Of a stretch of DNA of 64,000 bases, positions 1 through 57,351 are shown one piece after another. How positions within the stretch are numbered: the first letter of the stretch is position 1; every line of letters starts with the position of its first letter. A program made the translations under genes and the position numbers. The notes below the pieces were generated by a model, which did no database searches, was not told the DNA's origin, and was given only the letters and a program-made list of their open reading frames with translations. The stretch spans positions 15,448-79,447 of the forward strand of contig JALWAP010000107.1 in the NCBI GenBank assembly GCA_027016315.1. Direction: 5' to 3'. Origin of the DNA: Anaerolineae bacterium (GTDB lineage: Bacteria; Chloroflexota; Anaerolineae; S016-19).

Positions 1-1136
1 CGACGAGCTATTTCCTGGCCCCTGAGCGAGAGGGTGATAGAAGAGGTTATCTGTGACTCTTGGGGGAGGTCTTGCTTTTCCAGCCTGCTGCTACCCTGCC
101 AGTTCACAGCAATACGACCAAAGCCTTCGGAACGTCGTTCGCCTACACCATCTTGTTGTAGACGCTCCAGTTCATCAAAAGTGAACGCATCTGCAGCAAA
201 TACAAACACGCTGCCCGCTCTTAAGGCCACAGCCTGAGGTAAAGGAGATCGCCAAGCACGATTAAAGCCTCCAACTACGGTAGTTTCGTAGTAGGCTTCT
301 TGCCAGCTGCGTTTTGGTTTACCAAGGGCTAAAGCCAAATCGTCCGTCCACTGGCCAGTTGCCGGGTGACTGAGAAGAGTATCGCTCAGTAAAGTGAGAA
401 CCAGTTTCCCGCTTTGCCGTTCATCCCCATAGGGGGTAAATTCCCGAAAATTATCGACCAGCCTCACCTCTTCTATTGAGATGGTACCGTATCCCGCGCT
501 ACGAGAGCGCCCAAGATGGGCAATGGGTTCCTGGTTTAGCAAGGCCTGGATTTCCTCCAAAACCTCTTCCTCGCCCAAAATCACCCCCTTTAACCTTTCC
601 CCTGCCGCAATGGCCTCGTAACGAAAAACTGTACTTTCCTCTTTCCCTTTGTGCATACGTTTCGGGCTGGCATTATGGTAGCGGACTTCTCTCTTTGCAC
701 GTACGAAGGTGACAACAACCTCACCTTCGTCCTCCTCCACCCGACAAAAGTCCTGACGCACACGCATGGAGTGCTCCAGGCTTTCCTTGTCTTCTTTCTC
801 CAGCAATGCGAAATCCCAGATGGGGTGTGCTTTGGCCTCAAAATCGCTCTTTTCCATTCGCCAGGAGAGAGGGACAGGCAAAGCGCGTTGACGCCGCCGG
901 TCTTCTGGATAAGCGTGCAGGTAGCAGGTACTGGGCTCCAGGAACAGCCTGCGGAAATGGGGATCCAATGCCGGGGTATCCACAGGGTGACGCTGGAGAT
1001 AACGCCCGGCCAGCAGCCCCCGCATGGCACTGCCAGGGACATACTCTAGGCTGGTCGAACTGTTTTCGCCACCAGGACGATAGGAAGAGAACAACACAGG
1101 TTGCAATGTGCGCAGGGTGTAGGTCAAGGCTTTCAT
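1..1136 (-). CDS. csx10: Type III CRISPR RAMP protein, Csx10-like (Cas5-family subunit typical of subtype III-D); N-terminal 378 codons only, C-terminus lies beyond the left edge
   Basis: Absent from the ORF track because no stop lies in the window. I read the minus frame codon by codon from ATG (1136-1134) to base 1 and found no stop. Product begins MKALTYTLRTLQPVLFSSYRPGGENSSTSLEYVPGSAMRGLLAG. It carries glycine-rich RAMP loops GRSRSAGYG and GERRSEGFGRI. The start overlaps the upstream stop in an ATGA junction (1133-1136). Confidence 0.75.
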   Translation of the reverse strand, partial: MKALTYTLRTLQPVLFSSYRPGGENSSTSLEYVPGSAMRGLLAGRYLQRHPVDTPALDPHFRRLFLEPSTCYLHAYPEDRRRQRALPVPLSWRMEKSDFEAKAHPIWDFALLEKEDKESLEHSMRVRQDFCRVEEDEGEVVVTFVRAKREVRYHNASPKRMHKGKEESTVFRYEAIAAGERLKGVILGEEEVLEEIQALLNQEPIAHLGRSRSAGYGTISIEEVRLVDNFREFTPYGDERQSGKLVLTLLSDTLLSHPATGQWTDDLALALGKPKRSWQEAYYETTVVGGFNRAWRSPLPQAVALRAGSVFVFAADAFTFDELERLQQDGVGERRSEGFGRIAVNWQGSSRLEKQDLPQESQITSSITLSLRGQEIAR

Positions 1137-1774
1137 ATGCCAATCTCCTGATAGAAACGATCGACCCAATGCTGCGTCACGTCTTGTCCGTCGCATAACA
1201 AGCTGGCTTTCAAGCGGCCGAAGCCACGGGTACGGCGTGAACCAGCACGGCGTAGGGCTTTGGTGCATACAGCGAGCAACGAGAGGTCGTCCTTGGTAAG
1301 GTTTTCTTCAAAAAAGAGAGGTGCCTGGAAAGTAGTATTTCGCAGGATAACGCGTATACTGCGCAAAGTATGGGCTTCGGGTACCCCTGTGACTTCCATC
1401 GCCGTTTGGCGACGGATTGCCGTCAAGGACTCCAAGACCTGAGAAGGTGTTAGCTTCCCCTCTTCTACCTGAGAAACCACAAAGGCGTGTAAGTCTTCAG
1501 GTAAGGCTGCATCGCCAACAGAGAGTATGCCTTTCTGCTCCCCAGGCACACCGAACAGCCGAGCCGCTGTACGCTCCCAATGCTCGCTTTGTTCCCCCAG
1601 CGCGGCCAAAGTATCGGCACACGCTTCGGTCAGGAGACCTTTCAATGTCCTTCCTCCCAAGAAAGGGAAACCCCAGCGATCATGTTGGACTTCAATGTCT
1701 ACCAAGCCGCTGACACCGTCACCGCGTGCAAAAACAGCCTCGCTTTTCAGAGTAAACTCGAGAAGGCACGTCAT
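1133..1774 (-). CDS. cas7: Type III CRISPR RAMP backbone subunit (Cas7 / Csm3-Cmr4-like)
   Basis: 213 aa with FLGGRTLKGLL and a C-terminal G-rich loop RRTRGFGRL, as expected for a RAMP. A GAGGAGGGG RBS precedes it. There is a 2-nt gap after the cas10 stop and a 4-nt overlap with csx10, so the genes are operonic. Confidence 0.7.
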   Translation of the reverse strand: MTCLLEFTLKSEAVFARGDGVSGLVDIEVQHDRWGFPFLGGRTLKGLLTEACADTLAALGEQSEHWERTAARLFGVPGEQKGILSVGDAALPEDLHAFVVSQVEEGKLTPSQVLESLTAIRRQTAMEVTGVPEAHTLRSIRVILRNTTFQAPLFFEENLTKDDLSLLAVCTKALRRAGSRRTRGFGRLKASLLCDGQDVTQHWVDRFYQEIGI

Positions 1775-1776
1775 GT

Positions 1777-3393
1777 CTACCCCTCCTCATCCAAGGGAAT
1801 AAAGAAATCCATCGCCTCAATGGCGTCAAAATATGGCGTCCGCTTACCTACCCATCCGCGTTTTTGGACCTCTGGGGAGACGCTTGCCAATGGTGGCAAC
1901 TCAGGAATTCGGTATAGTCTTCTGAAATTTTCCACGGCCTCGGGTGTGCCCTGACGGAGAACCTCTCGCAAAGACTTTACTTTATTTCGCCGATCGCGCC
2001 ATGCATCGTCCGTCTTGAAGGCCAGGGTGATCTCAACAAAATTACGCCAAGTTCGCCACCCATTATACGGGGCGAGCTCGTTCCCCAATGCCACAGGGCG
2101 CATCAGCAGTGTATGTCCACCCGGCAGATGATAGGCGTGACGAATTTCTTCCAAATCGCCAAGCAGGCCAGCACTGGCAAAATGCCAGTCCAAGGCGTTC
2201 AAATCGTGGTCACCATTGCGTTGGTCTTGAATAAACGCTTTCGCCGAGTGGTTGAGGGCCTCGGTCAAAACATACGCCTGCGCAAAAGGATAGTGGGTTT
2301 TCACAATGGCGATGCCCCCACGAGCGTAAATCGGCCATTGGTTTCCTTCTGGGCCGATCAAACGCTGCTGGGTAAGCACTTTAATGTAATGGGCGGCCAA
2401 GCCAAGCCCAAGACGGCCTTCGGTGACAAAAGTAACATCATCGCCGCCATAGACAATAGGTCGAATGGGGAGATATATCTTTCCCTTTTCATCTTTGGGG
2501 GTAATGCCGTATTCCGATTTTAACTTCTCCATATTTACGGCTAAAAGCCGGATTGTGCTCTCTAATGCAACGTGGGCGGCCCTTTTCATACTCTGAGAGA
2601 AAGCCCTCATGGCCTCCACATAGGCACGATTCTTTTCAGAAGCAGCATAATACTGGGAGAGTTTCCGAACTTTCTTTCCCATGCCATTCACGTCCACGTG
2701 AACCACTGCCATATAACTACTCTCGCCCTCGCTGCGTCCCAAGTGATCAAAATCCTTTGGAATGCCAAAGTCACCCCAAGCCCCCTTGAATTCTGTCCAC
2801 AGATACTGATGAGCATCGGAAGCAGCACGAATTTTCGCTTCAGCCTCAGCAGAGAGCAAACTCCCATTCTCCCGGGCAACAGCGGGTAAGCCGGTAAACG
2901 CCCCGGAGGCCGTAACTCCCATACCAAGAAACGGCATATCTGTAGGGCGATTTTGCTTTTGCCGGGCCAGCCTCTCCATAGTGCGTTGCACAACGCCTTC
3001 TTCACCACCAAGGGCGCACTTTCTCCAGTCAAATGGCTCAGAATGAGCCATGACCACTTGTAAGCCAGGCGCTTCACGAAGCGCCCGATGTGTCAACCTT
3101 GCGGCGAACTCACGGGCAAGTGCATCCGACGAAAACAAGACCACAGCGTTGCCACCGCCGAAATAGATTACTTCTGCATCTAATTTGCCCTCTTCTATTC
3201 TTTTGTTAGAGTCAAATATTATCTCTTTATCCTCTAACTTCACATTGCACGCTTTTGGCAATGCTTCGATAACCCAACGGCTTGTCGCTTGCTTTACAAT
3301 CCACGAAGCACCTACGTTCTGACGCAGGTGGTTTGTACCATAAATATAGGGCTGAATACCCGATGTATCGACGATAGTGAGGATGTATTCCAT
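1777..3393 (-). CDS. cas10: Cas10-like cyclase/polymerase subunit lacking an HD nuclease domain (538 aa)
   Basis: Track ORF is 1777-3447. I prefer ATG at 3393 (RBS AAGGAGAGAGCAAATG). The protein opens directly with palm-1 motif IVDTSGIQPYIYG. Palm-2 has an intact VYGGDDVTF, with GGDD encoded at nt 2437-2448. There is no H..HD motif and no room for an HD domain N-terminal of palm 1. No CxxC pairs lie between the palms. Confidence 0.85.
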   Translation of the reverse strand: MEYILTIVDTSGIQPYIYGTNHLRQNVGASWIVKQATSRWVIEALPKACNVKLEDKEIIFDSNKRIEEGKLDAEVIYFGGGNAVVLFSSDALAREFAARLTHRALREAPGLQVVMAHSEPFDWRKCALGGEEGVVQRTMERLARQKQNRPTDMPFLGMGVTASGAFTGLPAVARENGSLLSAEAEAKIRAASDAHQYLWTEFKGAWGDFGIPKDFDHLGRSEGESSYMAVVHVDVNGMGKKVRKLSQYYAASEKNRAYVEAMRAFSQSMKRAAHVALESTIRLLAVNMEKLKSEYGITPKDEKGKIYLPIRPIVYGGDDVTFVTEGRLGLGLAAHYIKVLTQQRLIGPEGNQWPIYARGGIAIVKTHYPFAQAYVLTEALNHSAKAFIQDQRNGDHDLNALDWHFASAGLLGDLEEIRHAYHLPGGHTLLMRPVALGNELAPYNGWRTWRNFVEITLAFKTDDAWRDRRNKVKSLREVLRQGTPEAVENFRRLYRIPELPPLASVSPEVQKRGWVGKRTPYFDAIEAMDFFIPLDEEG

Positions 3394-3419
3394 TTGCTCT
3401 CTCCTTAATACTGCAAAAT

Positions 3420-4652
3420 TCACATATGGGCCGATTTGCGGATCCACGCCTTGAGATACTCGGCCAACTCTGGTAACTCCTTAGGGCCAAAAGCCTTCAC
3501 ATGCCCCTCCGTTAACCAATCCTCATCAACTTCGCGCTCGATTTTAGCAGGGTCATCATACATTGAGACCAAAGCTGTATGGGCTTCATCCCCTCCCATC
3601 TGGTGGGAGCGCAGATACGCTTCAAACAATTTACTCTTACACAAAGACTTCCTGCCGTCGGTAGTGCAAGAGACTGCAAACAATTGGTATCCTCTTAAAG
3701 CCGCTACATCGAACTCAAAATGTTTATCCGCCTCCGAGGGAGTCTCAATGTTCATTCCCACCTCGTGCAAATCAACCTCTGAGGCAATGCGCTGGAAGGA
3801 CATCAAGACATAATGCTCCAGCCATTTGCCTGCCAGCCACTCAGCCAAGTGCTCGACGTTCCACTTTTTGTGGCCAACCCGAGACCTCAGACCATCTTCC
3901 AAGTCACCTAAAGACAAAGCCGTAGACATCCCAAAAGCCTGAAATACTCGTCCGGGCGGCCCCGATGAGGGTAAAGGCACCTCTCTCAAATCCCTCTTAC
4001 TCTTAAACTTGATGAATCTCGGGGGCCGTCTTAGATTTTGAGCACACCACTCGCGCCACTTTTCTCGTGAAATTCCGTCAGCGTGAATTTCAACCAGCAC
4101 CTTAATGACTTCAGGAAACCACACTTCAGCCGCAGGCTCTTTTTTGAGAGTGCGACCATGTAACTGCATCAAGGTCCGAAGGGGTAAACGGCAATCTGTC
4201 CCCACTTTGCGAACGTGAGTAGACCCATCAAGTTGCTCAATCCTCATTGCCAATTCCCTAGCATCCAGGTAACTGAATACGGCGTCGGAGCGCTTATCTG
4301 CAACAGCCCGATAAGCGTGAACAGCCATCGCTTTGGTGCCCCCCGTGTAATGCAAACCTATACTTCCTCTATCAGCAAACTCTTGGACCAGATCACCAAC
4401 CGCTTTGTAAATTCGTGAAGCATCTGTCCAATGAATTTCCCGCGGGGCAGGGACTTTCCATTTTTGGGCGCTCTGTTCAAAAACTTGCTTCAATCGCTCA
4501 GCGATCGCATAAGTATCTGCCGTAGCCAATAAAACGATAGTGCCCTCTGGTTTGGTGAGTAAACATCCGGCTACATAATTCGGCAGCGGATTCGTACCAA
4601 CTAGCAAGAACAGCACATCCGTCTGATATGCTTTCCACCGTTCACTTGGCAT
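3420..4652 (-). CDS. CARF domain + PD-(D/E)xK-fold protein, Can2/Card1-like cOA-sensing effector (catalytic ExK position substituted)
   Basis: Track ORF is 3420-4688. ATG at 4652 has a GGGAGGGG RBS, giving 410 aa. N-terminal CARF-type motifs are LFLLVGTNPLPN and LHYTGGTKAM. The C-terminal nuclease-fold motifs are GKWLEHYV, FEFD(315)V and then LFAVSCTT. Where relatives read I-E-C-K-T (from memory), this protein reads S328-C-T330 (nt 3663-3671). Confidence 0.75.
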   Translation of the reverse strand: MPSERWKAYQTDVLFLLVGTNPLPNYVAGCLLTKPEGTIVLLATADTYAIAERLKQVFEQSAQKWKVPAPREIHWTDASRIYKAVGDLVQEFADRGSIGLHYTGGTKAMAVHAYRAVADKRSDAVFSYLDARELAMRIEQLDGSTHVRKVGTDCRLPLRTLMQLHGRTLKKEPAAEVWFPEVIKVLVEIHADGISREKWREWCAQNLRRPPRFIKFKSKRDLREVPLPSSGPPGRVFQAFGMSTALSLGDLEDGLRSRVGHKKWNVEHLAEWLAGKWLEHYVLMSFQRIASEVDLHEVGMNIETPSEADKHFEFDVAALRGYQLFAVSCTTDGRKSLCKSKLFEAYLRSHQMGGDEAHTALVSMYDDPAKIEREVDEDWLTEGHVKAFGPKELPELAEYLKAWIRKSAHM

Positions 4653-4727
4653 AAGCCTTTCCCCTCCCTGCGTCTTATAATACTTCACTCTCCACCTTTT
4701 TACATCAGAACAACCTCTGAAATCCCC

Positions 4728-5609
4728 CTACTTTTCCCCAAACCACCTCCTCATCACCGGCAGGCAGGGGGCGAAATGCTCCCGGACGAAGTGATAGCTG
4801 ATGTACTCATCAGGCTCCAGGCCCCACGCGTTCCGGCATTCGTCCAGGATCGGGGTCTTGTGAGAGTCCACCGTCTTCAGCGTGATCACCAGCTTCTCGG
4901 CCACCTCCTGCGGTGTCAGGCCTTCGGCAAGCGCAATCAGCGTCTCTCGCTGGCGGGGCGTCAGCCGCTCCCACACCTGCCTGCACCGCTGGATGCTCAT
5001 GGCGTCCAGCATACGGGTGTAGGAAGAAAGAGCCTCCGATGGAGAAACCCCGGCCAGCATCCGGAGCGTGGGGAAATACGCCCCCCACGGCGCCATCGGT
5101 ATCTGGATCAGGCGAACGTTTTCCCCTGTAGGGTCGTGCAATATCGCACCATCCCGGGCGCGTTCCAGAAAATCCGCCTCCGTGAACATATGCCACGCCC
5201 TGTCCTGATGCCCGAACATCAACATCGCCGCAGAAAGCGCCATGAACCCGATCATCCTACGCCCACCTGCCAGCACCAGGTGCAGGCTCCGCTCCTCGTC
5301 CTTCAGGCTCCTGACCAGATTCCACACGTCCATCCAGACCGCTTCTGCGTCCGCCTCCGTCCTCACATCGCGGAGCGGCTCGCCCGAAGGTCTGCGCAGC
5401 AGGTGCCTTCGGAACCGGACCTTCCTGCCAGCGTAGGAACCTCCTGCGAACTCCCGCGCCAACTGAGAAAGCGCCCTGTTCACCCTGACATCCTCCGGCG
5501 ACAGATGCAGCACCACCACCTCGTCCACGCCATCGTCGAGCAGCAAATCGGCGGCGAAAGTCACCACCTGCGCCTGCCCGCCCATCGTAACCACCAGAGT
5601 TTTTCCCAC
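4728..5609 (-). CDS. CARF-like sensor domain fused to a C-terminal LuxR/GerE-type HTH (putative cOA-responsive transcription regulator)
   Basis: GTG start with a GGGGGAGAA RBS. N-terminal motifs LVVTMGGQAQVVTFAADLL and LVLAGGRRMIGF resemble the NE0113-type CRISPR-associated Rossmann (CARF) family, recalled from memory. The C-terminus LTPRQRETLIALAEGLTPQEVAEKLVITLKTVDSHKTPIL is a canonical LuxR-family HTH. It is the first gene of the minus-strand cas operon. Confidence 0.75.
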   Translation of the reverse strand: MGKTLVVTMGGQAQVVTFAADLLLDDGVDEVVVLHLSPEDVRVNRALSQLAREFAGGSYAGRKVRFRRHLLRRPSGEPLRDVRTEADAEAVWMDVWNLVRSLKDEERSLHLVLAGGRRMIGFMALSAAMLMFGHQDRAWHMFTEADFLERARDGAILHDPTGENVRLIQIPMAPWGAYFPTLRMLAGVSPSEALSSYTRMLDAMSIQRCRQVWERLTPRQRETLIALAEGLTPQEVAEKLVITLKTVDSHKTPILDECRNAWGLEPDEYISYHFVREHFAPCLPVMRRWFGEK

Positions 5610-5624
5610 ATTCTCCCCCGAATA

Positions 5625-5640
5625 TCAGAGATTTCTCCGA
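5625..5640. promoter_or_regulatory. Imperfect 16-bp inverted repeat in the divergent control region (candidate operator)
   Basis: TCAGAGATTTCTCCGA matches its own reverse complement at 12 of 16 positions (half-sites GAGA / TCTC). It lies 16-31 nt upstream of the CARF-LuxR GTG start and about 50 nt upstream of the AAA-Csx3 ATG. Confidence 0.25.
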
Positions 5641-5691
5641 TGCAAACCCCGCCTTTCTGAGTTAAACTTGTACCGAGAGGAGCGAAAGACC

Positions 5692-6798
5692 ATGTCCGAA
5701 TTTCCGGCCATCCTCATCGGCGGCCCGCCCCACAGCGGGAAATCGGTGCTGGCGTACCACCTGACCCGCAGACTCCGCCAGCTCCGGGTGGATCACTACG
5801 TCCTCCGGGCCTACCCCGACGGAGAAGGCGACTGGAGCTACGAAGCCGACCAGAACCTGGTCCGCGCCATCAGAATCAAAGGCATCGGCGACGACAGATG
5901 GGTCGCCAGGATACGCCGCGACATCGCCCGAAGGCACCTGCCGCTCATCGTGGACGTGGGCGGCAAACCCACCCCGTCCCAGGAAACCATCTTCGACGAA
6001 TGCACCCACGCCATCCTCCTCTGGCCCGACGAGATCGCCCATCAGGAGTGGATCTCCCGCATGGAACGCCACGGCCTGCCGATCATCGCCGACCTGCACT
6101 CATCCCTCAATGGCACCGACGAAATCGCCTCCACGGGACCGGTGGTACGGGGCACCATATCCGGGCTGGACAGAACCAACCCGAAGCTCGGACCGGCGTT
6201 CGACGCCGTGTTCGAAAAAGTTGCCGGACTCTTCGCCACCGACAGGGAAGCCCTGCGCCGGAAGCACATCCTGGAAGCTCCGGTGGACCTGGCGATAGAC
6301 ATCGAACGACTCGCCTACACCCTGAAAGTCCCCGGCAACCCACCCCGATGGCGTCCGGAGGACATTCCGGCGCTCATAGACTACCTGCCGGAGCACAAGC
6401 CGCTGGGAGTGTACGGCAGGGCCCCTTGCTGGATATACTCGGCGCTGGCGGCCTATTCGCTTCCCGCCGAATTCTGGCAGTTCGACCCAAGGTACGGGTG
6501 GATGAAGCCGCCGACACTCCGCATTTCTGGGAAGTGGAACGATGCTCCGTGGACTGTGATGTATTCCCAGGAAGGTAAAGTTATTCGCCTGTATTTTGCT
6601 CTAAGGCACCACTACGTGGACCCGATAGACGCTGGAGGGCAACCTGTACCAAAAGTCGCTCCCGAACGCTCAGTCATCCTGGAAGGCAAACTCCCTCTGT
6701 GGCTTTTCACGGCTTTGACCAGAACTTACGCTCCGTATCATGCAGTGTTCGTATCTCAACCCCAGCTTTCGGACAAGCCGGTAAAAGTCTCTAAATGA
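5692..6798 (+). CDS. csx3: P-loop NTPase fused to two tandem Csx3 (Crn3 ring-nuclease-type) modules
   Basis: Track ORF starts at TTG 5668. ATG 5692 has a GAGGAG RBS, giving 368 aa. Walker A is ILIGGPPHSGKS and Walker B-like is PLIVDVGG. Module A (about aa 198-275) reads LGVYGRAPCWIYSALAAYS..FWQFDPRYGW. Module B (about aa 286-365) reads VILEGKLPLWLFTALTRTYAPYHAVFVSQPQL. Both mirror the A. fulgidus Csx3 core VVISGRGPIWLHCFLAHKYHH..VAVYDPRLG, recalled from memory. Confidence 0.8.
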   Translation: MSEFPAILIGGPPHSGKSVLAYHLTRRLRQLRVDHYVLRAYPDGEGDWSYEADQNLVRAIRIKGIGDDRWVARIRRDIARRHLPLIVDVGGKPTPSQETIFDECTHAILLWPDEIAHQEWISRMERHGLPIIADLHSSLNGTDEIASTGPVVRGTISGLDRTNPKLGPAFDAVFEKVAGLFATDREALRRKHILEAPVDLAIDIERLAYTLKVPGNPPRWRPEDIPALIDYLPEHKPLGVYGRAPCWIYSALAAYSLPAEFWQFDPRYGWMKPPTLRISGKWNDAPWTVMYSQEGKVIRLYFALRHHYVDPIDAGGQPVPKVAPERSVILEGKLPLWLFTALTRTYAPYHAVFVSQPQLSDKPVKVSK

Positions 6799-7117
6799 AG
6801 TCCGGCACTCCCGACGAATGACGCCCTCTCACAGTCTTACTCTGCAAGCGAAGTTTTCCATTTGATACATTCTACAACGATAAGCATACCTCTGTCAAAA
6901 AAACGAGCCCCAGGGTCTAAGATGTGTATTCTGACATTCTCGAGATGTGTCTTCGTGGAGGTCTTGGGCAACCAGCCTGTTGGGCCGTACTGGTTCATCT
7001 GTCCTGATGAAGGGGAGCAGCGACGACGAGCCCCTGCCTCGGCCGGGAATGAGGCGACAGAGGGCGCCCGCGAAGGGGCTGTAGCTCGGACTCACGCCCG
7101 AAAGTCGCAGAACGCTT

Positions 7118-7163
7118 CAAAACACAGCGGCGTTGCACGGGTTCGACACCCGCGAAACGCCGC
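7118..7163 (-). terminator. Probable intrinsic terminator of the lipoprotein gene
   Basis: An 8-bp stem GCGGCGTT (7127-7134) / AACGCCGC (7156-7163) encloses an inner CGGG..CCCG helix. On the minus strand it is followed by TGTGTTTTG. It sits about 60 nt after the stop at 7223. Confidence 0.45.
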
Positions 7164-7222
7164 CATGTAAATGTCCGATTCCCCGCGGCCCACTCGAGGA
7201 CTCATGGGGGCATCGAAATTCT

Positions 7223-8632
7223 CTACGGGGTCCATATGGTCGTCAGGTCCTTCGAGTTGTTGGATTCATTGCTCTCGGGAACCTGATTTTCCGCATCCAC
7301 TACTGCTCTTTGGTGTCTGGTTTGCTGTGAGCTACAGGTAAAGGTGAACGAGTAACTCGTGCTCCAGGTCGCTCCTGCATTCAAACCCGAAACAGTGGAT
7401 TGTCTCATTGGGCTCGGCGCGCTCGAGCTCCAATAGTAGTAGACCTCGAAACTCCCTGCCGCCACGTTACCCACATTCTTCACGGTGATATGGACCCAGT
7501 AGGAATCTCCGCAGTGCGGATTGGGCTTCGACGTGAAGCTGGAGACGATCAAATCCGGCTTCAAAGTGAACACCGGAGTCGGCAAAGAAAGGCTTGGCAA
7601 GACGTTTATCGTGACATGCCTGTCTTCGGCGGTCCCGTCGGATTTTACGATGTGCAGCGTATACGTCTTGTTGGCCGAAGGACATACCTGCTTGCTGCCG
7701 TGTCCAGCGACTCCGGCGCCTTCGAGGTACACTGCCTGAACACCCTCCACATCCCAATGAAGATTCGTGCACTGACCGTTGAAGATGCTCGCCTTGTCCG
7801 ACCAGAAATTAGCCTGAAAAGCTGCGCCCTCGCCTGCCTCTGGCGGGGACGTAGGTACGGCCGTCGGAGGAGCAGGTGTCGTTCCCGGGGCTTCCGATGG
7901 GATCGGAGGGACATCCGCAACCTGTACGTTTTCCACATTGCTCGGAGAGACGTAAGCGGCTGCGACCCAACCGCGCCGCCCGGTGTCGGCTGGAAACTCG
8001 ATCTGCCACCACGCTCCGGTCGGGTCCTTGCCGGTGATGACGGCGCTGTTTCCTTTCTGCAGCACCCCGACCTTCGGATAATCAGTGCCTGGGCCAGTAC
8101 GCACGTTCAGATCAACCGCAGCCACCAGGCTTGGGACGGATGGAACTGGGGTATCCGGCTTCTTCGTTGCCGTAGGTTCCTTCGTCGCTGCAGCAGCCGC
8201 AGGCGGCGTCGAGGTGGGAGGCGCCGGAGTTGGCGACGCTTCTGCCGTTTTCGGCGCCACGGATATCACCAGAGGAAACGGCGACGGTTGCGTTCCATCG
8301 TGGCAATACCCCCGTGCTTCCAGAGAGTAAGTTCCGGCGGAAGTTGGCATCCATTTGAACGTTACCGGAAGTTCCTTCGGGTAGCTACCTTGCGGGGCAT
8401 CCGCTCGTCCGATTGCAGCCCCGTTCACCCACAACTCCACCCTTTCCACGCCGCTGCCACATGCGGCCTTCACTTTCACGTCAATCGTATCGTTGGAGAA
8501 TACAGCGCTCCCCGGAGCAGGAGATTCTATCACGATGGCCGACCCACCGGTCGGAAGTTTCGAATGGGTACATGCTGTCAATAGCAAGACAAACGAGAGG
8601 GCCAGTAGGAAGAAGAATTTCGGGCGATGCAT
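7223..8632 (-). CDS. Secreted multidomain lipoprotein (Ig-like, SH3b and CARDB-like domains, Pro/Thr-rich linkers)
   Basis: Track ORF is 7223-8725. I prefer MHRPKFFFLLALSFVLLLTAC (signal peptide plus lipobox, ATG 8632). The SH3b-like stretch is DLNVRTGPGTDYPKVGVLQKGNSAVITG..WWQIEF. The C-terminal CARDB-like stretch is PDLIVSS..ITVKNVGNVAAGSFEVYYYW..NESNN. Confidence 0.8.
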   Translation of the reverse strand: MHRPKFFFLLALSFVLLLTACTHSKLPTGGSAIVIESPAPGSAVFSNDTIDVKVKAACGSGVERVELWVNGAAIGRADAPQGSYPKELPVTFKWMPTSAGTYSLEARGYCHDGTQPSPFPLVISVAPKTAEASPTPAPPTSTPPAAAAATKEPTATKKPDTPVPSVPSLVAAVDLNVRTGPGTDYPKVGVLQKGNSAVITGKDPTGAWWQIEFPADTGRRGWVAAAYVSPSNVENVQVADVPPIPSEAPGTTPAPPTAVPTSPPEAGEGAAFQANFWSDKASIFNGQCTNLHWDVEGVQAVYLEGAGVAGHGSKQVCPSANKTYTLHIVKSDGTAEDRHVTINVLPSLSLPTPVFTLKPDLIVSSFTSKPNPHCGDSYWVHITVKNVGNVAAGSFEVYYYWSSSAPSPMRQSTVSGLNAGATWSTSYSFTFTCSSQQTRHQRAVVDAENQVPESNESNNSKDLTTIWTP

Positions 8633-9009
8633 TTCACTTTCCCCTTTCGGCAACCTGTGCCTGCTTGAAAGCGGTACGGATTTTGTCGACGATCGAATTA
8701 TATTCGAAAATTTTCTCATCGTCAAATTTTTCTAAAATCAACAAAAACTCGCTAATCCAAGGACCTTTCCCCCCAGCGGGATTGTACCAACCCCCGCATG
8801 GTCGCCACTACCCGACCATAACGCCAAAGGGAGTAAGCCCACAGCGGTTGGCGCTGCTCAAACAGGACGAAAATCTATCGGGAGAGAGTCAGAGGGAACG
8901 CCAAGACGGGATTCGGAACCGGGGTCATGGCCTCGGCTCACCTCATTGACAAAAACCTCTTCGGCATGGTATCTCTCCATAGGTGAAAACTTTCGAGTGG
9001 TCGAGGAAC

Positions 9010-9855
9010 ATGGAATCCGAAACCAAACTCGCGCTTCTCATGGACGTAATCCGTCCGATGGAGCGCGTTGCGATAGGCTACTCCGGCGGCGTGGACAGCG
9101 CCCTGCTCCTGCGGGTTGCGCTGGAGACGCTGGGCCGTGAGAACGTGCTGGCGGTGATGGCCGTGGCGCCCATCTGGCCCACCGACGAGCAGGAACGGGC
9201 GATCCACATGGCGCGGGAGATGGGCGCCGAAGTCCGGACGGTGCAGGCACCGGACATCTCGCAGCCTGCGTTTGCCAGGCACCTGCCGAACCGGTGCTAC
9301 TTCTGCAAGCTGGACATCTTCTCCCACGTGATCCGGGCGGCGAAGGATGCGGGCTCCCGGTGGATCGCCGACGGCACCAACCTGGACGACCTGGGCGAGG
9401 ACAGGCCCGGCCTGCGGGCGCTGCGCGAGCTTGGGGTTCGCAGCCCGCTGGCAGAGGCAGGGTTGACCAAGTCCGACGTCCGGGCTCTGGCCCACGAGTT
9501 CAGCCTGCCCGTCTGGGACGCGCCGGTGCGGGCCTGCCTGGCGACCCGCATCCCCTTCGGGACGCCGGTCACGGAGGATCGGCTGCGCCTGGCGGAAGCG
9601 GCAGAGCGTGCCATCGCCGGACTGGGGTTCCGGGAGTACCGATGCAGGCTCCACGGCGATCTCGTCCGGCTGGAACTTCCGCCGGACGAACTGCCGCGTG
9701 CGCTGGAGATGCGTGAGCGGATAACATCCGAGATGCACCGCCTCGGATTCAGGCACGTGACGGTGGATCTGGATGGCTTAAGACAAGAACATGGCCGGAG
9801 TTCATCCACAATCGCGAAGATTGCACAGACCGGAAAAGCAAATTTTGAGGTTTGA
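9010..9855 (+). CDS. larE: ATP-dependent sulfur transferase LarE (nickel-pincer cofactor biosynthesis, PP-loop ATPase)
   Basis: PP-loop IGYSGGVDSALLL, the motif CYFCK, and a conserved Cys in RACLATRIPFGT are present. The C-terminus matches LarE (GFRHVTVDLDG). The start is ambiguous between GTG 8983 in the track and ATG 9010. Confidence 0.9.
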   Translation: MESETKLALLMDVIRPMERVAIGYSGGVDSALLLRVALETLGRENVLAVMAVAPIWPTDEQERAIHMAREMGAEVRTVQAPDISQPAFARHLPNRCYFCKLDIFSHVIRAAKDAGSRWIADGTNLDDLGEDRPGLRALRELGVRSPLAEAGLTKSDVRALAHEFSLPVWDAPVRACLATRIPFGTPVTEDRLRLAEAAERAIAGLGFREYRCRLHGDLVRLELPPDELPRALEMRERITSEMHRLGFRHVTVDLDGLRQEHGRSSSTIAKIAQTGKANFEV

Positions 9856-31906: not shown

Positions 31907-33121
31907 CTACCCTTCTTTCCGGATCTTTTCCCAGTTCAGCTTGACCTGCTTCATCTCTCCTGCCCACTTCTTTGAAGCCAGTTCAATCTGCGCTATGATA
32001 GTGGCCTGTGCATCTCTCAAGACTTGCATCAAATCCATGTGTACCTGTAATTCCTTTTCGAACGACCTGAGTGCTTCTCTGAGTTCCTGATTGACCTTGT
32101 CCTGAGAGTTCCATTGGCTCTCAAGGGTTACCAACTGTTTGTGCCACATGCGGTCGTTCTCGTCCTTGAATTCCGCCAATTCTTTTCGCTGGCGTTCCTC
32201 GGCTATGCGCTGCAACTCCGATACCTGATTGATCCCCCGCCGCATTTCTTCTTTGAATTCCTCCAGAGTGTCTACAACCTTAAGCATCTCACGGTGAGAT
32301 ACGGCAAATTCTTCCATCTGTTCCCGGAATTTTCCGAGTTTTGTTTCTATCTCATTCCACTCCTTCTCCCACTCGGAAATCTTCTTGTCGCGAGCAGTCT
32401 CCCGGAGATTCACCCTCTCAATGAATTCTTTGTGGTCTTTGTTGATTCTTTCTACGGCGAGTTTTAGTTCCTCAGAGGTCTTCTGTTGTCTTTCGATCTG
32501 TTCGCTCAGCAACGGATACCTTGATTTCAGCTCGCCGAGGGCTTTTTGGAACGCAATGATTTCACCCTGAGTTTTGGAAATCCTTTTGTGATCCTGTTCG
32601 ATCCTCTCAGATAAGAACGTAAGAGGACGAACCTTCTCCTCGACTTCTGACCTTATGCTTTCGAATTGATGCTTCAGTTCGATGATGATATCGTTGAGGC
32701 GGCCTTCTTCTGCCTCCCTAGTTTTCATCCATTCCTTAAGCCCTATCGAATGGAATGCATTTATGTCTTTCCGCATCAATGCAACTTGCTGGGAAAGCCT
32801 CTCCAAGTCCCCCCTGTACAGCCTTTCAGATTCGTGGACTTCCTCCAGCAGGTCTTCTCGGTAATCCTTCAAAGTGAGCCCAAGCTCGCTTTTCAGCTGA
32901 TCCAAAGATTCTTCGATTTGCTTCAGTTTGGAAAGCTGACCCTGAACACTCGAAAGCTCGAATTCCAGCTGCTGTACCCTCGCGGTCTGTTCCTCGAGCT
33001 CGCCCATGAGTCCGGCCACCTGCTGCATCAGCCGTGCTCTTTCCTCTTTGTCCTTTTTTCTTTCCTCATCGAGCCACTTGACCATCTGGCTTATCTGGGT
33101 AATGTCCAGTTCCTTGGGCAT
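31907..33121 (-). CDS. Hypothetical long coiled-coil protein (404 aa, E/K/L/Q-rich)
   Basis: The sequence is heptad-like throughout (..LEEQTARVQQLEFELSSVQGQLSKLKQIEESLDQLK..). It ends 7 nt before the next gene starts. Confidence 0.6.
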   Translation of the reverse strand: MPKELDITQISQMVKWLDEERKKDKEERARLMQQVAGLMGELEEQTARVQQLEFELSSVQGQLSKLKQIEESLDQLKSELGLTLKDYREDLLEEVHESERLYRGDLERLSQQVALMRKDINAFHSIGLKEWMKTREAEEGRLNDIIIELKHQFESIRSEVEEKVRPLTFLSERIEQDHKRISKTQGEIIAFQKALGELKSRYPLLSEQIERQQKTSEELKLAVERINKDHKEFIERVNLRETARDKKISEWEKEWNEIETKLGKFREQMEEFAVSHREMLKVVDTLEEFKEEMRRGINQVSELQRIAEERQRKELAEFKDENDRMWHKQLVTLESQWNSQDKVNQELREALRSFEKELQVHMDLMQVLRDAQATIIAQIELASKKWAGEMKQVKLNWEKIRKEG

Positions 33122-33326
33122 TTTGCTTTCCTCCGTATTGGTCTACGCGAAATTATATCACCGCGATTCCGATAAAAGCAATCCCGCACGATTATGAACT
33201 CTAACGAATAATAAATAATACAAAGCGCCCGAGAGGAAATCTGAAAGGGAAAACATGGCAGAGCCGCCCGGCCTGCCCTGTGAAATTCAAATGCTTTTGC
33301 CTTGCTTCATACCACCGGCGATCTTT

Positions 33327-33632
33327 TCAAGGCAAAGGCTCCCCGGCATCCATCCTAGCCTTGAGTCTTTGGAATATATCTTCTTCCGAACCAGAAATCC
33401 TCGCGACGACGGCACCCGTATCAGAGATAGCCTGCTCTTCCTCCTCCGATACGAACTCCGTTCCACCGATTATCGTGACTTTTTCTGCCTGTTTCGCGTC
33501 CTCGACAGAAAATCCAAATGCTGTACCGAACCGCATCAGGTAATCGACGGTCAGAAGGAAGTTGGTCAGCGTTCCGACAACCCCTCTTTCGCCGAACAGG
33601 ACGTATCTTTCAACGAATTTTTCCCTGGACAT
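33327..33632 (-). CDS. Hypothetical small protein (101 aa)
   Basis: A strong RBS (AAGGAGGTGGTATG) lies 10 nt after the stop of the 904-aa gene. I recognise no motif. Confidence 0.5.
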   Translation of the reverse strand: MSREKFVERYVLFGERGVVGTLTNFLLTVDYLMRFGTAFGFSVEDAKQAEKVTIIGGTEFVSEEEEQAISDTGAVVARISGSEEDIFQRLKARMDAGEPLP

Positions 33633-33642
33633 ACCACCTCCT

Positions 33643-36357
33643 TCAGCCTTTCAGCCTCTGGGCTACGAACTCCTCCAGGCTCCGGAGGGAAGCAGGAAGT
33701 GCCTCCACTTTACATCCGTCCCTCCGCAACGATTCCGCCACGTCTTCCCCAACACCAGCGAGGAACACATTCATGGCGTGTCTTGCTTCATCGGCAGAAA
33801 ATCCCGCCGTCCCATGGAGCTTCTGCATGTACGGCCTCAACAGCAGGATCCTTTCCCTGAGGAATCTGTCATCCCGGGCCAAAAGGAAGTAGTACTCGAT
33901 GACTTTCTTCGGAGGAGGAACTTCCAATACTATCTCCGGCACGGTTACCGTGTCGGTGCCTGTGGTCTCTATGCCGGTTACCTCTTCCCCACCAACGGAT
34001 ATGGTGTACTCTCCCCGAGGGAGACCCTCGAACTTGTATTTGCCGTCCTCCGATAGAGCAGCCTCCCTGGTCCAGGAGTAAGTCTCGCTCTTCAGCAACA
34101 CTGTCTGCCCCTGAAAACCATTCTTCACCGAGCCCTGGATCACACTTTGCAATGGGAAGAGAATGGTCTTTTGGTTCCTGCCGGTGAGTTCTATGGAATC
34201 TTCGATCACTCCAATTCCCTCGAGCTCAAGCCGGTACGTGCCCGCGGCGAGGTCGGAGAACTCGAAGTACCCGCTCCTGGTCAGAGTCGTCGTCCTGACA
34301 GAATTGCCCCTGCGCAGGATGACCTTCTGTCCTTCCCTACCCCCGGGTATCTTCCCGGAAATCTTGCTTGCGTGAGCAGGTGCTATCTTTGGGAGCAACT
34401 GGAAATTGATCTCGTAGCTTACAGGCCGATGTTCCTGGCCTGGGGCGTTAACCGTATCAAGGTGATCCGCCACCTCGCTTTCCCAATCTCCCTGCACCAC
34501 CCGAACGCTGAAAACTCCAGCCGTGTGAAGGAATTCGTAATAACCAGGAGGCTTGGAAACGAAATGCCCGCTCTCGACCACCGGGAACCTCGTTCCCGGA
34601 GCTGCTCCTTCCCAACGCATCTCGAGTTTGATGTCGTTCAGGGGACGCCCGTCTTGGTCAAGCACCTGCCCGAAGAAAAGGCTGCGGTTGCGATTCTCCG
34701 CTGCGGGGAGCAATCGCTTCGTAACCACCCGATACACGAACCCTTGAGGGGTAGGCAGTTCGATATGCACCGAGTAGCTACCATCGCCCGTTATCGATAC
34801 AGCCTCCTCGCGATTCTCAGACTGAACCGTGTATTCGCCCTGGGCTTTGACGGCAAACCGGAACTTTCCGCTGGCGTCGGCTCTGGTGGTAGCCAGTACC
34901 TCACCGTCCTCTGAGATCAAAGACACTTTCACCCCTGGGGCCGGGCTCCCGTCCTCATAGGCGATCGAGCCAATGATGTTAGCGTCCGCCGCTGGGGCAA
35001 GGTCCGTTATCCCCAGGCGAGTGACGTTCTTGGCCCTTACTTCGGTCTCGATTTCCTTTCTCCATTCGATTTTCAGCTTGTATTGCCCGGCAGGGATTCT
35101 CTGAAATTCGAACCTCCCGTTTTCGTCGCTGGAGGTCTCTGCGACCGCTTTGTCGCCCCTAACCAGGGTTAGCCGGAGTTGCAACGGCGTTCCGTTTTTG
35201 TCCTTTACGGTGCCTTCTATGGAGCCAAGAACTTCCTCCACGTTGAGCCTGGCTCTGGTAGGCAGCGCTTTGAGCGCGTCTACGGCTGGAAGGTGTCCGT
35301 TGAGGCCGAACCTTGAATCCCACCAGTGTGTGTACCAGGCCTGGCTTTCCCATCCGGGACCGAAGTAGCCTATTTCGTAATTGGCTATCAGCCAGTGGCA
35401 TAGGCAGAAGAAATTGTCTGGAGCGCCCTCTCCGTGGATAACCTTCGTTCCCTGGAGGTATTCCGCTATATCCTCCACCATTTGCCTGTGGAGCTCTGGG
35501 GTGATGCGAGGATACCTCCGGTCGTCACGCCAACCGACGACAGGCCCCCCTTCAGTTCCAAGAATTGGTATCCTGAACCCCAGTGTCTCGTCCATTATGC
35601 TGTTGACGCCTTCGAACTGAAGGAAACAGTACGGTTCGTCCCTGGCGGTGTGGCCGGGGTTCTTGTCCTTCGCACGCCATCGGTTTATCAAGTCCATGGG
35701 TTGGTTGTCCCACGCCCAGGGCCCAAGGGCATCGTATTCTTCCTGACTTAGCGGCTTCCCGAGCTGATTCACATCGTCATAAGGATAGTCGAGAGGATGG
35801 TTCGAAGTATAATTGTGTATCGCAACCCACGCACCGGACTCGAGGATGTCACGTCTGCCCTTTTGCAGGATGATTTCAAAAGGATTGTCCTCGTCTGTGA
35901 TCACCATCGAAGGGAGTGCGGGGAGCCCCCCGACAGATAAGATGAAATCCGCATCAAAGATGAAATTGTCCACGACCACTTCGACCCAGTTCGGTGGCAT
36001 GTTGTGTCCTTGCCACTCGTCGGGCAGGTTCGGTTCGTTGTTCGTTTCGAAATACCGGACCCCCACGGAGACAAGACGGCGGATGGTATCCATTTCCCGC
36101 CCGTGGATATGTCCCGGGTTAGGTTCAGGTCTGTACAGACGGACGACCGGCATCATCCCTTCTTCGACCAACCTGGTGCATACCTTTAGCGATGACCCTC
36201 CGCCATCGTCGAGCACTTTGACCCATTTGATTTTCATTTCTTTCAGTTCGCGTATCCATCTTTCCAGCGGATCTCCCTCCGGATGGTATACGCTCGCGCT
36301 CCAATGTATGCCTCTCCCGTTGTCCTCAGGGGGTCTGGGGAAATCTTCTATACGCAT
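33643..36357 (-). CDS. Large cytoplasmic protein: clan GH-A-like TIM-barrel N-domain, repeated carboxypeptidase-regulatory-like (Ig/PEGA-type) domains and a C-terminal alpha/beta domain
   Basis: 904 aa with no signal peptide. YFETNNEPN and PILGTEGG resemble the acid/base and nucleophile strands of GH-A enzymes. At least five repeats follow the pattern G.V.D..G.P......L......T.SD.NG.F.F..L..G.Y.L. Confidence 0.7.
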   Translation of the reverse strand: MRIEDFPRPPEDNGRGIHWSASVYHPEGDPLERWIRELKEMKIKWVKVLDDGGGSSLKVCTRLVEEGMMPVVRLYRPEPNPGHIHGREMDTIRRLVSVGVRYFETNNEPNLPDEWQGHNMPPNWVEVVVDNFIFDADFILSVGGLPALPSMVITDEDNPFEIILQKGRRDILESGAWVAIHNYTSNHPLDYPYDDVNQLGKPLSQEEYDALGPWAWDNQPMDLINRWRAKDKNPGHTARDEPYCFLQFEGVNSIMDETLGFRIPILGTEGGPVVGWRDDRRYPRITPELHRQMVEDIAEYLQGTKVIHGEGAPDNFFCLCHWLIANYEIGYFGPGWESQAWYTHWWDSRFGLNGHLPAVDALKALPTRARLNVEEVLGSIEGTVKDKNGTPLQLRLTLVRGDKAVAETSSDENGRFEFQRIPAGQYKLKIEWRKEIETEVRAKNVTRLGITDLAPAADANIIGSIAYEDGSPAPGVKVSLISEDGEVLATTRADASGKFRFAVKAQGEYTVQSENREEAVSITGDGSYSVHIELPTPQGFVYRVVTKRLLPAAENRNRSLFFGQVLDQDGRPLNDIKLEMRWEGAAPGTRFPVVESGHFVSKPPGYYEFLHTAGVFSVRVVQGDWESEVADHLDTVNAPGQEHRPVSYEINFQLLPKIAPAHASKISGKIPGGREGQKVILRRGNSVRTTTLTRSGYFEFSDLAAGTYRLELEGIGVIEDSIELTGRNQKTILFPLQSVIQGSVKNGFQGQTVLLKSETYSWTREAALSEDGKYKFEGLPRGEYTISVGGEEVTGIETTGTDTVTVPEIVLEVPPPKKVIEYYFLLARDDRFLRERILLLRPYMQKLHGTAGFSADEARHAMNVFLAGVGEDVAESLRRDGCKVEALPASLRSLEEFVAQRLKG

Positions 36358-46060: not shown

Positions 46061-46120
46061 GCGGGCGAACCAGACGGCTTGCCGCTACAAAACGCGTAGG
46101 TCGAGTCGTCTGACTCGACC
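46061..46120. repeat. Hairpin-rich interspersed repeat (REP/BIME-like), inverted copy of part of the 57.1-kb unit
   Basis: GCGGGCGAACCAGACGGCTTGCCGCTACAAAACGCGTAGGTCGAGTCGTCTGACTCGACC is closely similar to the reverse complement of 57150-57200 (..GGTCGAGTCAGACGACTTGACCTACGGCGTGCTTTGTAGTGGCGAGCCGTCTGGCTCGCC). Confidence 0.8.
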
Positions 46121-56970: not shown

Positions 56971-57351
56971 GCTGGGGGTTGCTCCCCCGTTTTGGTCGAG
57001 TCAGGCAACTCGACCTACAGGTATTCTGTAGGGCGAGCCGTCTGGCTCGCCCTGTCGAGCTAACAGCTTGACCTACAACCACGCAGAGGCGCGCCCACCG
57101 CTTTGGTCGAGTCAGGCGACTCGACCTACACGTGCTTTTCGGTCGAGTCAGACGACTTGACCTACGGCGTGCTTTGTAGTGGCGAGCCGTCTGGCTCGCC
57201 ATGTCGAGCTGACAGCTCGACCTACGACCACGCAGAGCGCGCTCCCCCACTTTGGTCGAGTCAGGCGACTCGACCTACACGTGCTCTTCGGTCGAGCCAG
57301 GCGACTCGACCGACGGCGTGCTTTGTAGTGGCGAGCCGTGTGGCTCGGGGC
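56971..57351. repeat. Tandem array (about 2.5 copies of a roughly 148-bp unit) of composite palindromic (REP/BIME-like) elements
   Basis: Unit 57102-57249 is repeated from 57250 as a truncated copy. A shorter copy at 56991-57101 lacks the second hairpin. Each full unit holds four different hairpins: GGTCGAGTCAGGCGACTCGACC, GGTCGAGTCAGACGACTTGACC, GGCGAGCCGTCTGGCTCGCC and GTCGAGCTGACAGCTCGAC. Confidence 0.85.

Follow-up and report, generated by a model that had tools for sequence, protein, structure and literature searches.

A predicted clade-1 Can2 nuclease with S-C-T in place of E-C-K in a type III-D CRISPR locus of an Anaerolineae bacterium

SthCan2 and TsuCan2 (7BDV; Zhu et al., NAR 2021, PMC7969007) and TresuCard1 (6WXW/6XL1) are homodimeric nucleases that join a CARF domain to a PD-(D/E)xK domain and are activated by cyclic tetra-adenylate (cA4). 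A phylogeny that Jungfer, Sigg and Jinek (NAR 2023, PMC10783487) reported for 828 Can2 orthologues places these three proteins, which come from III-A/III-B loci and are activated by a 'pull-and-rotate' mechanism, in clades 2, 5 and 6, and its largest clade is clade 1, which is encoded in type III-D loci. Clade-1 proteins feature the motif E-ExD-SxTTS-K, whereas the other clades feature E-ExD-(E/S)CK (PMC10783487). The gene described here is located in 64,000 nucleotides of an Anaerolineae bacterium of the Chloroflexota (GenBank assembly GCA_027016315.1, contig JALWAP010000107.1, positions 15,448 to 79,447 of the forward strand), which are together called the window, and it encodes a Can2/Card1-like protein, window Can2, that reads S-C-T where E-C-K is expected. 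A first-pass annotation had noticed this replacement and had considered that the protein might be catalytically dead. The anomaly is real, but it has already been published and explained mechanistically, and window Can2 appears to be a typical representative of the largest Can2 clade, found in the genomic setting that is usual for it.

The structures and biochemistry of TbrCan2 (Thebr_0943 from Thermoanaerobacter brockii, PDB 8Q3Y-8Q44), a clade-1 protein, were reported in PMC10783487, from which the following is taken. TbrCan2 is a cA4- and Mn2+-dependent nuclease that cleaves single-stranded RNA (ssRNA) with a kcat of 7.6 per min and single-stranded DNA (ssDNA) with a kcat of 0.1 per min, and it binds cA4 only. 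An INS domain is described for Can2 between the CARF domain and the nuclease (REase) domain. The catalytic site features Glu304, Glu341, Asp343, Lys369 and Glu372, of which Lys369 is located on the following helix. Ser356 stands at the place of Card1 Glu308 and SthCan2 Glu291 and is involved in outer-sphere Mn2+ coordination, and Thr358, Thr359 and Ser360 bind the substrate phosphates. Mutagenesis studies showed that DNase activity is abolished by E304A, D343A and K369A, that T358A and T359A disrupt activity, and that S356A and S360A reduce it. Glu341 is a ligand of the second metal, and the E341A protein served as the 'inactive' form for crystallography. A relay composed of F340, R376, I380, D383 and E384 couples cA4 sensing to strand beta10, and Glu364, a position occupied by Arg in many clade-1 members, determines a preference for the CA dinucleotide.

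The can2 gene occupies positions 3420-4652 of the window on the minus strand, and its translation is a 410-residue protein followed by a stop codon. A pseudogene or decaying gene was considered and rejected, as the frame is intact, the good Shine-Dalgarno-like sequence GGGAGGGG precedes the ATG at 4652, an identical 410-residue product is called on four public metagenome contigs, and orthologues at 65-67% identity retain the motifs. The protein features LVGTNPLPN at residues 17-25, YTGGTKAM at 102-109, GKWLEHYV at 275-282, FEFD315V, V-S328-C329-T330-T331, and TDGRKSLCKSK at 331-341, so that every motif quoted in the first-pass annotation is where it was said to be. The CARF ligand motif NxTGGTK reads H101-Y-T-G-G-T-K107. 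The assignment as a Can2/Card1-like CARF nuclease has also held, based on Pfam, PADLOC and the predicted fold. PF09002 (Card1_endonuc; DUF1887; a model of 136 positions) scores 33.6 bits over residues 271-405 (gathering score 26.4; E 3.2e-8), and the PADLOC model CARF4--CARF_PDDEXK matches the whole protein at 1e-121.

The S-C-T sequence is encoded by TCT TGC ACT (S328-C329-T330; nt 3671-3663, minus strand), and both the translation and two alignments to SthCan2 confirm that it stands at the ExK position with the central Cys kept, as had been noted. The single sequence ('faVSCTT') and a family profile of 117 sequences ('FaiSCtt') both align opposite 'hvIECKT' of 7BDV, with S328 and T330 at the canonical Glu and Lys positions. 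VC1899 (1XMX) shows E-C-K-T at the same strand, and in both 7BDV and 1XMX the K of I-E-C-K-T has Thr330, not a lysine, opposite it. The canonical (E/S)-C-K on the third core strand, whose Lys is the one that takes part in catalysis, is therefore not present in window Can2.

Window Can2 is predicted to consist of three domains. The CARF domain includes approximately residues 1-150 (4203-4652, minus strand), contains the cA4-contact motifs G19-T20-N21-P22-L23-P24-N25 and T103-G104-G105-T106-K107, and aligns with TbrCan2 4-162. The alpha-helical INS domain, at approximately residues 151-265 (3858-4202, minus strand), is delimited by the secondary structure of an AlphaFold2 (AF2) model, in which it has six helices (158-164, 180-191, 193-207, 219-223, 231-238 and 248-259); the family profile aligns with TbrCan2 across this region with gaps. 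The PD-(D/E)xK (REase) domain comprises residues 266-410 (3423-3857, minus strand), is recognized by PF09002, and aligns over residues 266-371 with TbrCan2 291-398.

The profile alignment and structure prediction proposed in the first-pass annotation were carried out, and they confirmed S-C-T opposite E-C-K and identified TbrCan2 as the best match. The AF2 model, built with 117 homologues, has a pLDDT of 95.8 and a pTM of 0.93. Foldseek comparison of this model with the PDB gave 8q41/8q3y as the best matches (E ~1e-23), the top ten all being TbrCan2 chains, followed by SthCan2, VC1899, a Dysgonamonadaceae Can2, Card1, Cdn1 and Can1; the top 22 rows, with a probability of 1.00, are all TbrCan2, SthCan2, VC1899, Dysgonamonadaceae Can2, Card1 or Cdn1. 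Sequence searches against the PDB agree. The single sequence matched TbrCan2 at 2.8e-27, SthCan2 at 2.9e-5 and Card1 at 0.04, and the family profile matched TbrCan2 best, at 2.4e-59 and over essentially the full length. Window Can2 is provisionally placed in clade 1 by its motif, its relay, its locus type and its best PDB match.

A HMMER alignment of residues 266-371 with TbrCan2 291-398 contains a single three-residue insertion in TbrCan2 and is gapless from residue 297 on; the residue numbering was checked against the numbers in PMC10783487. All of the following positions are on the minus strand. By this alignment, E279 (3816-3818) corresponds to the catalytic E304 of TbrCan2, and E313-F-D315 (3708-3716) corresponds to E341-x-D343, the ligands of two Mn2+ ions on strand beta10. 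S328-C-T330-T331-D332 (3657-3671, also read from the codons) corresponds to S356-L-T358-T359-S360, the clade-1 'SxTTS' that replaces E-C-K. K341-L-F-E344 (3621-3632) corresponds to the catalytic K369 and E372, in an ungapped part of the alignment and within an AF2 helix, so that the lysine is relocated to the helix that follows. The first-pass annotation had offered relocated residues in TDGRKSLCKSK as another possibility, and this was essentially correct, as K341 is the last residue of that segment. The AF2 secondary structure agrees with the register: E279 is in helix 266-289, E313 and D315 open strand 313-320, S328 ends strand 323-329, and K341 and E344 are within helix 335-356.

The allosteric relay of TbrCan2, R376, I380, D383 and E384, is matched by R348...M352-G-G-D355-E356 (3585-3611), where I380 is conservatively replaced by M352. 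Further aligned pairs are K276 with K301, F312 with F340, and S336 with E364. In the CARF domain, G19, T20 and P24 pair with TbrCan2 G11, T12 and P16, and T103-K107 pairs with T99-K103. Every catalytic and relay residue of TbrCan2 has a counterpart in window Can2, and the E-ExD-SxTTS-K motif is found with one deviation, the last Ser being Asp332. Judged by alignment, the catalytic constellation, the threonines that would hold the substrate, the cA4 contacts and the clade-specific relay are all present in window Can2.

At E <= 1e-5 the family numbers at least 2040 database clusters, and conservation was counted in the best 120 homologues, which have 35-67% identity, and in 80 genomes of different species. 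In the active site, D315 and E344 are invariant in both sets (120/120 and 80/80). The position of E279 is Glu in 113 and Asp in 7 of the homologues and Glu in all 80 genomes, while E313 is replaced more often (E 91, Q 21 and D 8 in the homologues; E 57, Q 20 and D 3 in the genomes). K341 is kept in 108/120 homologues and 76/80 genomes, and the nearby K339 in 119/120 and 80/80. Within the S-C-T-T segment, S328 is found in 119/120 homologues and 78/80 genomes, C329 in 120/120 and 67/80, and T331 in 109/120 and 66/80; T330 is Thr in 84 and Ser in 25 of the homologues and Thr in 59 and Ser in 16 of the genomes. The near-invariance of S328 argues that S-C-T-T is a selected motif and not a chance or decayed ExK.

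The relay is conserved to a similar extent. R348 is invariant (120/120 and 80/80), and in the 120 homologues F312 is kept in 113, position 352 is M, L, I or V in all 120, D355 is D or E in 119, and E356 is kept in 119. The cA4-contact positions of the CARF domain are near-invariant in these homologues; the T, G, G, T and K of NxTGGTK are each found in at least 117, and at its first position 70 homologues have N and 50 have H. At position 332, 51 of the homologues have S, 31 have D and 18 have E. Position 336 is G in 47, S in 27 and D in 15, and the base preference in the subclade with Ser336 is thus unpredictable.

A separate observation concerns the position of TbrCan2 E341, which is E313 in window Can2 (3714-3716). 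Gln is found there in 21/120 proteins and 20/80 genomes, mostly Cyanobacteria such as Microcoleus (loci L009, L012, L021, L025, L027, L028, L030, L034-L036, L044, L047, L058, L062, L064, L066, L070, L076, L080 and L083). These homologues keep all other catalytic residues, and window Can2 has Glu. The natural E-to-Q variants of clade-1 Can2 might be attenuated or RNA-biased enzymes.

The analysis shows the sequence, motif mapping, conservation, fold and synteny of window Can2, and a mechanism can be proposed in which the ligand, the metal dependence, the substrates and the mode of activation are taken from homology to TbrCan2 and to the type III-Dv system of Synechocystis. A Csx19-containing effector complex would bind a foreign transcript, upon which a Cas10 that lacks the HD domain but has an intact GGDD motif would make cyclic oligoadenylate (cOA), most likely cA4. 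The cA4 would sit at the interface of the two CARF domains in a Can2 homodimer and contact G19/T20/P24, T103-K107 and D355/E356. Binding would push the D355-E356 loop and the R348/M352 helix against strand beta10 (F312-E313-F-D315), and the shift of this strand would allow E313 and D315 to hold two Mn2+ ions. Catalysis would involve E279, E313, D315 and K341, with the lysine supplied by the helix after the third core strand and not by a canonical ExK, while S328 would coordinate the metal through water and T330/T331 would grip the phosphates of ssRNA or ssDNA. The predicted output is collateral cleavage of ssRNA or ssDNA that leads to growth arrest. An AAA-Csx3 ring nuclease encoded nearby probably degrades the signal and ends the response, and a CARF protein with a helix-turn-helix (HTH) domain probably links the signal to transcription.

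Window Can2 is very probably an active nuclease of the cA4 type. Several points weigh against this reading. Its identity to TbrCan2 is only ~23-28%. The final Ser of SxTTS is replaced by Asp332, and S360A lowered the activity of TbrCan2; the Asp is regarded as a tolerated variant because an acidic residue is found there in 49/120 homologues. Ser336 (3645-3647) stands where TbrCan2 has its base-selectivity residue E364, and the CA preference of TbrCan2 is therefore not transferable to window Can2. In addition, Tandem Repeats Finder and direct-repeat scans found no CRISPR array, and no cas6, cas1, cas2 or other adaptation gene was found, in the window or in the 9.5 kb (1-9531) of L001, a public metagenome contig that extends the locus; an array may be located further left or elsewhere in the genome.

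The alternative raised by the first-pass annotation, in which both ExK residues are replaced and the protein acts as a dead cOA binder (a sponge, buffer or scaffold), could be based on S328 and T330 standing where SthCan2, VC1899 and Card1 have the canonical E and K, and on the substitution at Asp332. The same S-x-T-T is found in TbrCan2, for which cA4-stimulated activity was measured and whose structures show a complete metal and lysine constellation supplied by other residues. All of the residues whose mutation kills TbrCan2 are kept in window Can2, and E279, D315 and K341 are conserved or invariant across the 120 homologues and 80 genomes. A pure binder is not expected to keep a metal and lysine active site under such constraint, so this alternative is extremely unlikely, and by homology it falls to the refuting conditions that the first-pass annotation itself had named. 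Lack of the ExK should not be taken as evidence that a Can2/Card1-type protein is inactive, and this correction is the main value of the comparison.

There is also the question of which signal the nuclease answers. An active enzyme that responds to cA3, cA6 or a messenger of the SAM-AMP type would be in keeping with a diversity of products among type III-D Cas10 enzymes and with the His at the first NxTGGTK position, and there are precedents for other signals: a type III-D2 complex yields SAM-AMP and SAM-AMP2 instead of cOA (PMC13294483), and the Can2 relative Cdn1 is reported to take several cAn species (PMC12825302; PDB 8z4i/9u49). The III-D2 system differs in make-up, with Cas7x3 and Cas7-5, a CorA effector and no CARF protein (PMC13294483), whereas the locus in the window is of the Csx19 type, like Synechocystis III-Dv, whose cOA activates a CARF nuclease (PMC11026444). 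TbrCan2 binds only cA4, and its cA4 contacts G11, T12, P16, T99-K103, D383 and E384 are conserved in window Can2. A signal other than cA4 is accordingly given a very low probability. SAM-AMP signalling as in III-D2 was judged unlikely, given the Cas7x3/Cas7-5 and CorA of that system and the Csx19 and CARF effectors found here, and cOA (cA4) signalling stays the best inference.

Within the cA4-nuclease reading, window Can2 belongs to a subclade of Chloroflexota and Cyanobacteria with S-C-T-T-D and Ser336, in which the Cys of E-C-K is retained, the final Ser of SxTTS has given way to an acidic residue, and the base-selectivity position is occupied by neither Glu nor Arg. It is possible, though doubtful, that this subclade differs from TbrCan2 in its choice of substrate or base preference, for example by being RNA-only or by having no CA preference. 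If this were true, it would be a distinct functional variant that is useful for type III-based diagnostics.

The proteins compared here differ in how closely they resemble window Can2. TbrCan2 shares with it the CARF-INS-REase architecture, the E-ExD-SxTT-K layout with the lysine on the next helix, the relay residues F, R, I/M, D and E, the cA4-contact motifs, and the III-D locus. They differ in that TbrCan2 reads S-L-T-T-S and window Can2 reads S-C-T-T-D, retaining the Cys of E-C-K, in that the INS domain of window Can2 is ~30 residues shorter, and in the host, which is a member of the Firmicutes for TbrCan2 and of the Chloroflexota for window Can2. SthCan2, TsuCan2 and TresuCard1 have the same fold (Foldseek E 1e-15 to 1e-18), and the GxWxE helix and the E...ExD portion of the motif are common to them and window Can2; they feature the canonical E-C-K on the third core strand, in contrast to S-C-T in window Can2. 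Can1 (TTHB144, 6SCE) and Cdn1 (8Z4I/9U49) are DUF1887-type CARF nucleases activated by cyclic oligoadenylates and are detectable fold relatives, but both are far more distant in sequence. Can1 is monomeric and contains a pair each of CARF and nuclease-like domains, and Cdn1 is activated by several cAn species.

The can2 gene is part of a type III-D operon on the minus strand. It lies 26 nt upstream of cas10 (1777-3393, 538 residues), which is matched by PADLOC Cas10d (2.9e-126) and by PF22335 (palm2) and is also called as a 538-residue gene on L001. The sequence of this Cas10 lacks an HD domain and has an intact cyclase motif, Y-G-G-D-D-V, so that defence at this locus presumably works through signalling and RNA cleavage by Cas7 and not through a Cas10 DNase. 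The cas7/csm3 gene of type III-D (1133-1774, minus strand, 213 residues) is matched by PF03787 (RAMPs) and by PADLOC Cas7_IIId (3.5e-70). It is followed by cas5_IIId/csx10 (1-1136, minus strand), an open frame that leaves the window, with 378 codons of the 5' part of a 522-residue product within it (PADLOC Cas5_IIId, 2.4e-136) and the full gene on L001. Over window 1-4754, L001 has 99.87% identity, and it continues the locus leftward with a double Cas7 (462 residues), Csx19 (187 residues; PADLOC 3.3e-35) and a Cas7 with a large insertion (717 residues). The order of transcription is CARF-HTH, can2, cas10, cas7, cas5_IIId/csx10, double cas7, csx19 and cas7-insertion. In 77/80 genomes, mostly of Cyanobacteria and Chloroflexota, can2 is followed by cas10 and then by the remaining genes.

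Judged by its gene content, the locus has a Csx19-containing type III-D architecture close to that of Synechocystis sp. PCC 6803 III-Dv. The Synechocystis complex (8S9U; Schwartz et al. 2024, PMC11026444) is without HD nuclease function and produces cOA, by which a CARF nuclease is activated. It shares with the operon in the window and on L001 an HD-less Cas10 with intact GGDD, a double Cas7, Csx19 and a Cas7-insertion. There are two differences: Synechocystis III-Dv has a cas7-cas5-cas11 fusion, whereas the Cas7 (213 residues) and Cas5_IIId (522 residues) of the window are encoded by separate genes and no Cas11 part was recognized, and the accessory proteins named in PMC11026444 are Csm6 and Csx1, not Can2.

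A related observation is that the PADLOC Cas5_IIId models, which have 679-709 positions, match Cas7 at positions 3-199 and Cas5 at positions 216-640 (window 1-1774, L001:2981-5187). Since the models PDLC02089/02091 match both proteins, the two are fused in other genomes, where they form a single product of 680-710 residues, as in the Cas7-Cas5-Cas11 of Synechocystis. In its unfused state the locus seems intermediate between III-D1 and III-Dv. The G+C content is ~0.50 at window 2001-4000, which contains cas10 and can2, and ~0.58 in the rest of the window, which would fit a horizontal origin of the CRISPR module.

Two further genes adjoin can2. The first, 75 nt upstream on the same strand (4728-5609, minus strand), encodes a 293-residue protein with a CARF domain (Cas_NE0113/CARF3) and a LuxR/GerE-type HTH domain, as determined by PF09623 (7.2e-30), PF00196 (2.1e-7) and PADLOC CARF3--CARF (3.2e-104). 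Only 9/80 related genomes, mainly of Chloroflexota, have a homologue beside can2, and the protein is presumably a cOA-responsive transcription factor. The second gene is divergent from the first (5668-6798, plus strand, with a probable ATG at 5692) and encodes an AAA-Csx3 fusion with the P-loop GGPPHSGKS, matched by PF09620 Cas_csx3 (9.7e-11), by TIGR02579 'ring nuclease Crn3/Csx3' and by PADLOC AAA-Csx3 (1.3e-117); a homologue adjoins can2 in 21/80 genomes. Its Csx3/Crn3 module points to a ring nuclease by which the signal is turned off. Csx3/Crn3 was reportedly identified as a cA4 ring nuclease family by Athukoralage et al. in 2020, which also argues against a signal other than cA4.

The locus would then represent a complete and conventional signalling pathway, with Cas10 as a competent cyclase, Can2 as the effector, Csx3 as the ring nuclease and the CARF-HTH protein as the regulator. 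The concern in the first-pass annotation that the locus has no obvious cleaving effector falls away, as we infer that Can2 is active. No new question is opened by window Can2, and its modest value is as an extra, divergent clade-1 sequence for studies of substrate specificity.

The window is otherwise ordinary chromosome. The remaining genes include LarB, an Opp-type ABC transporter, xanthine-dehydrogenase-like genes, phosphoenolpyruvate carboxykinase, ComEC, exonuclease VII and a nucleotidyltransferase of the poly(A) polymerase/CCA-adding type. Rfam and tRNA scans of the window found only two tRNAs, which are irrelevant to can2. A 22-nt perfect or near-perfect palindrome, GGTCGAGTCAGGCGACTCGACC, is present in six copies (window 56984-57347 and 46099-46120), where none are expected by chance. 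Five of these, in a 149-bp tandem arrangement, are located in the intergenic region that separates a DAGK/YegS-like kinase gene from the poly(A) polymerase/CCA-adding-type gene, and the sixth is directly after a gene with a Usp domain. The copies look like intergenic hairpin repeats of the REP type, are far from the CRISPR locus, and are the sole repeats found in the scans. A second dip in G+C content (~0.50), at window 32001-34000, covers the 3' end of a large gene for a secreted repeat protein with CarboxypepD_reg domains (33643-36357).

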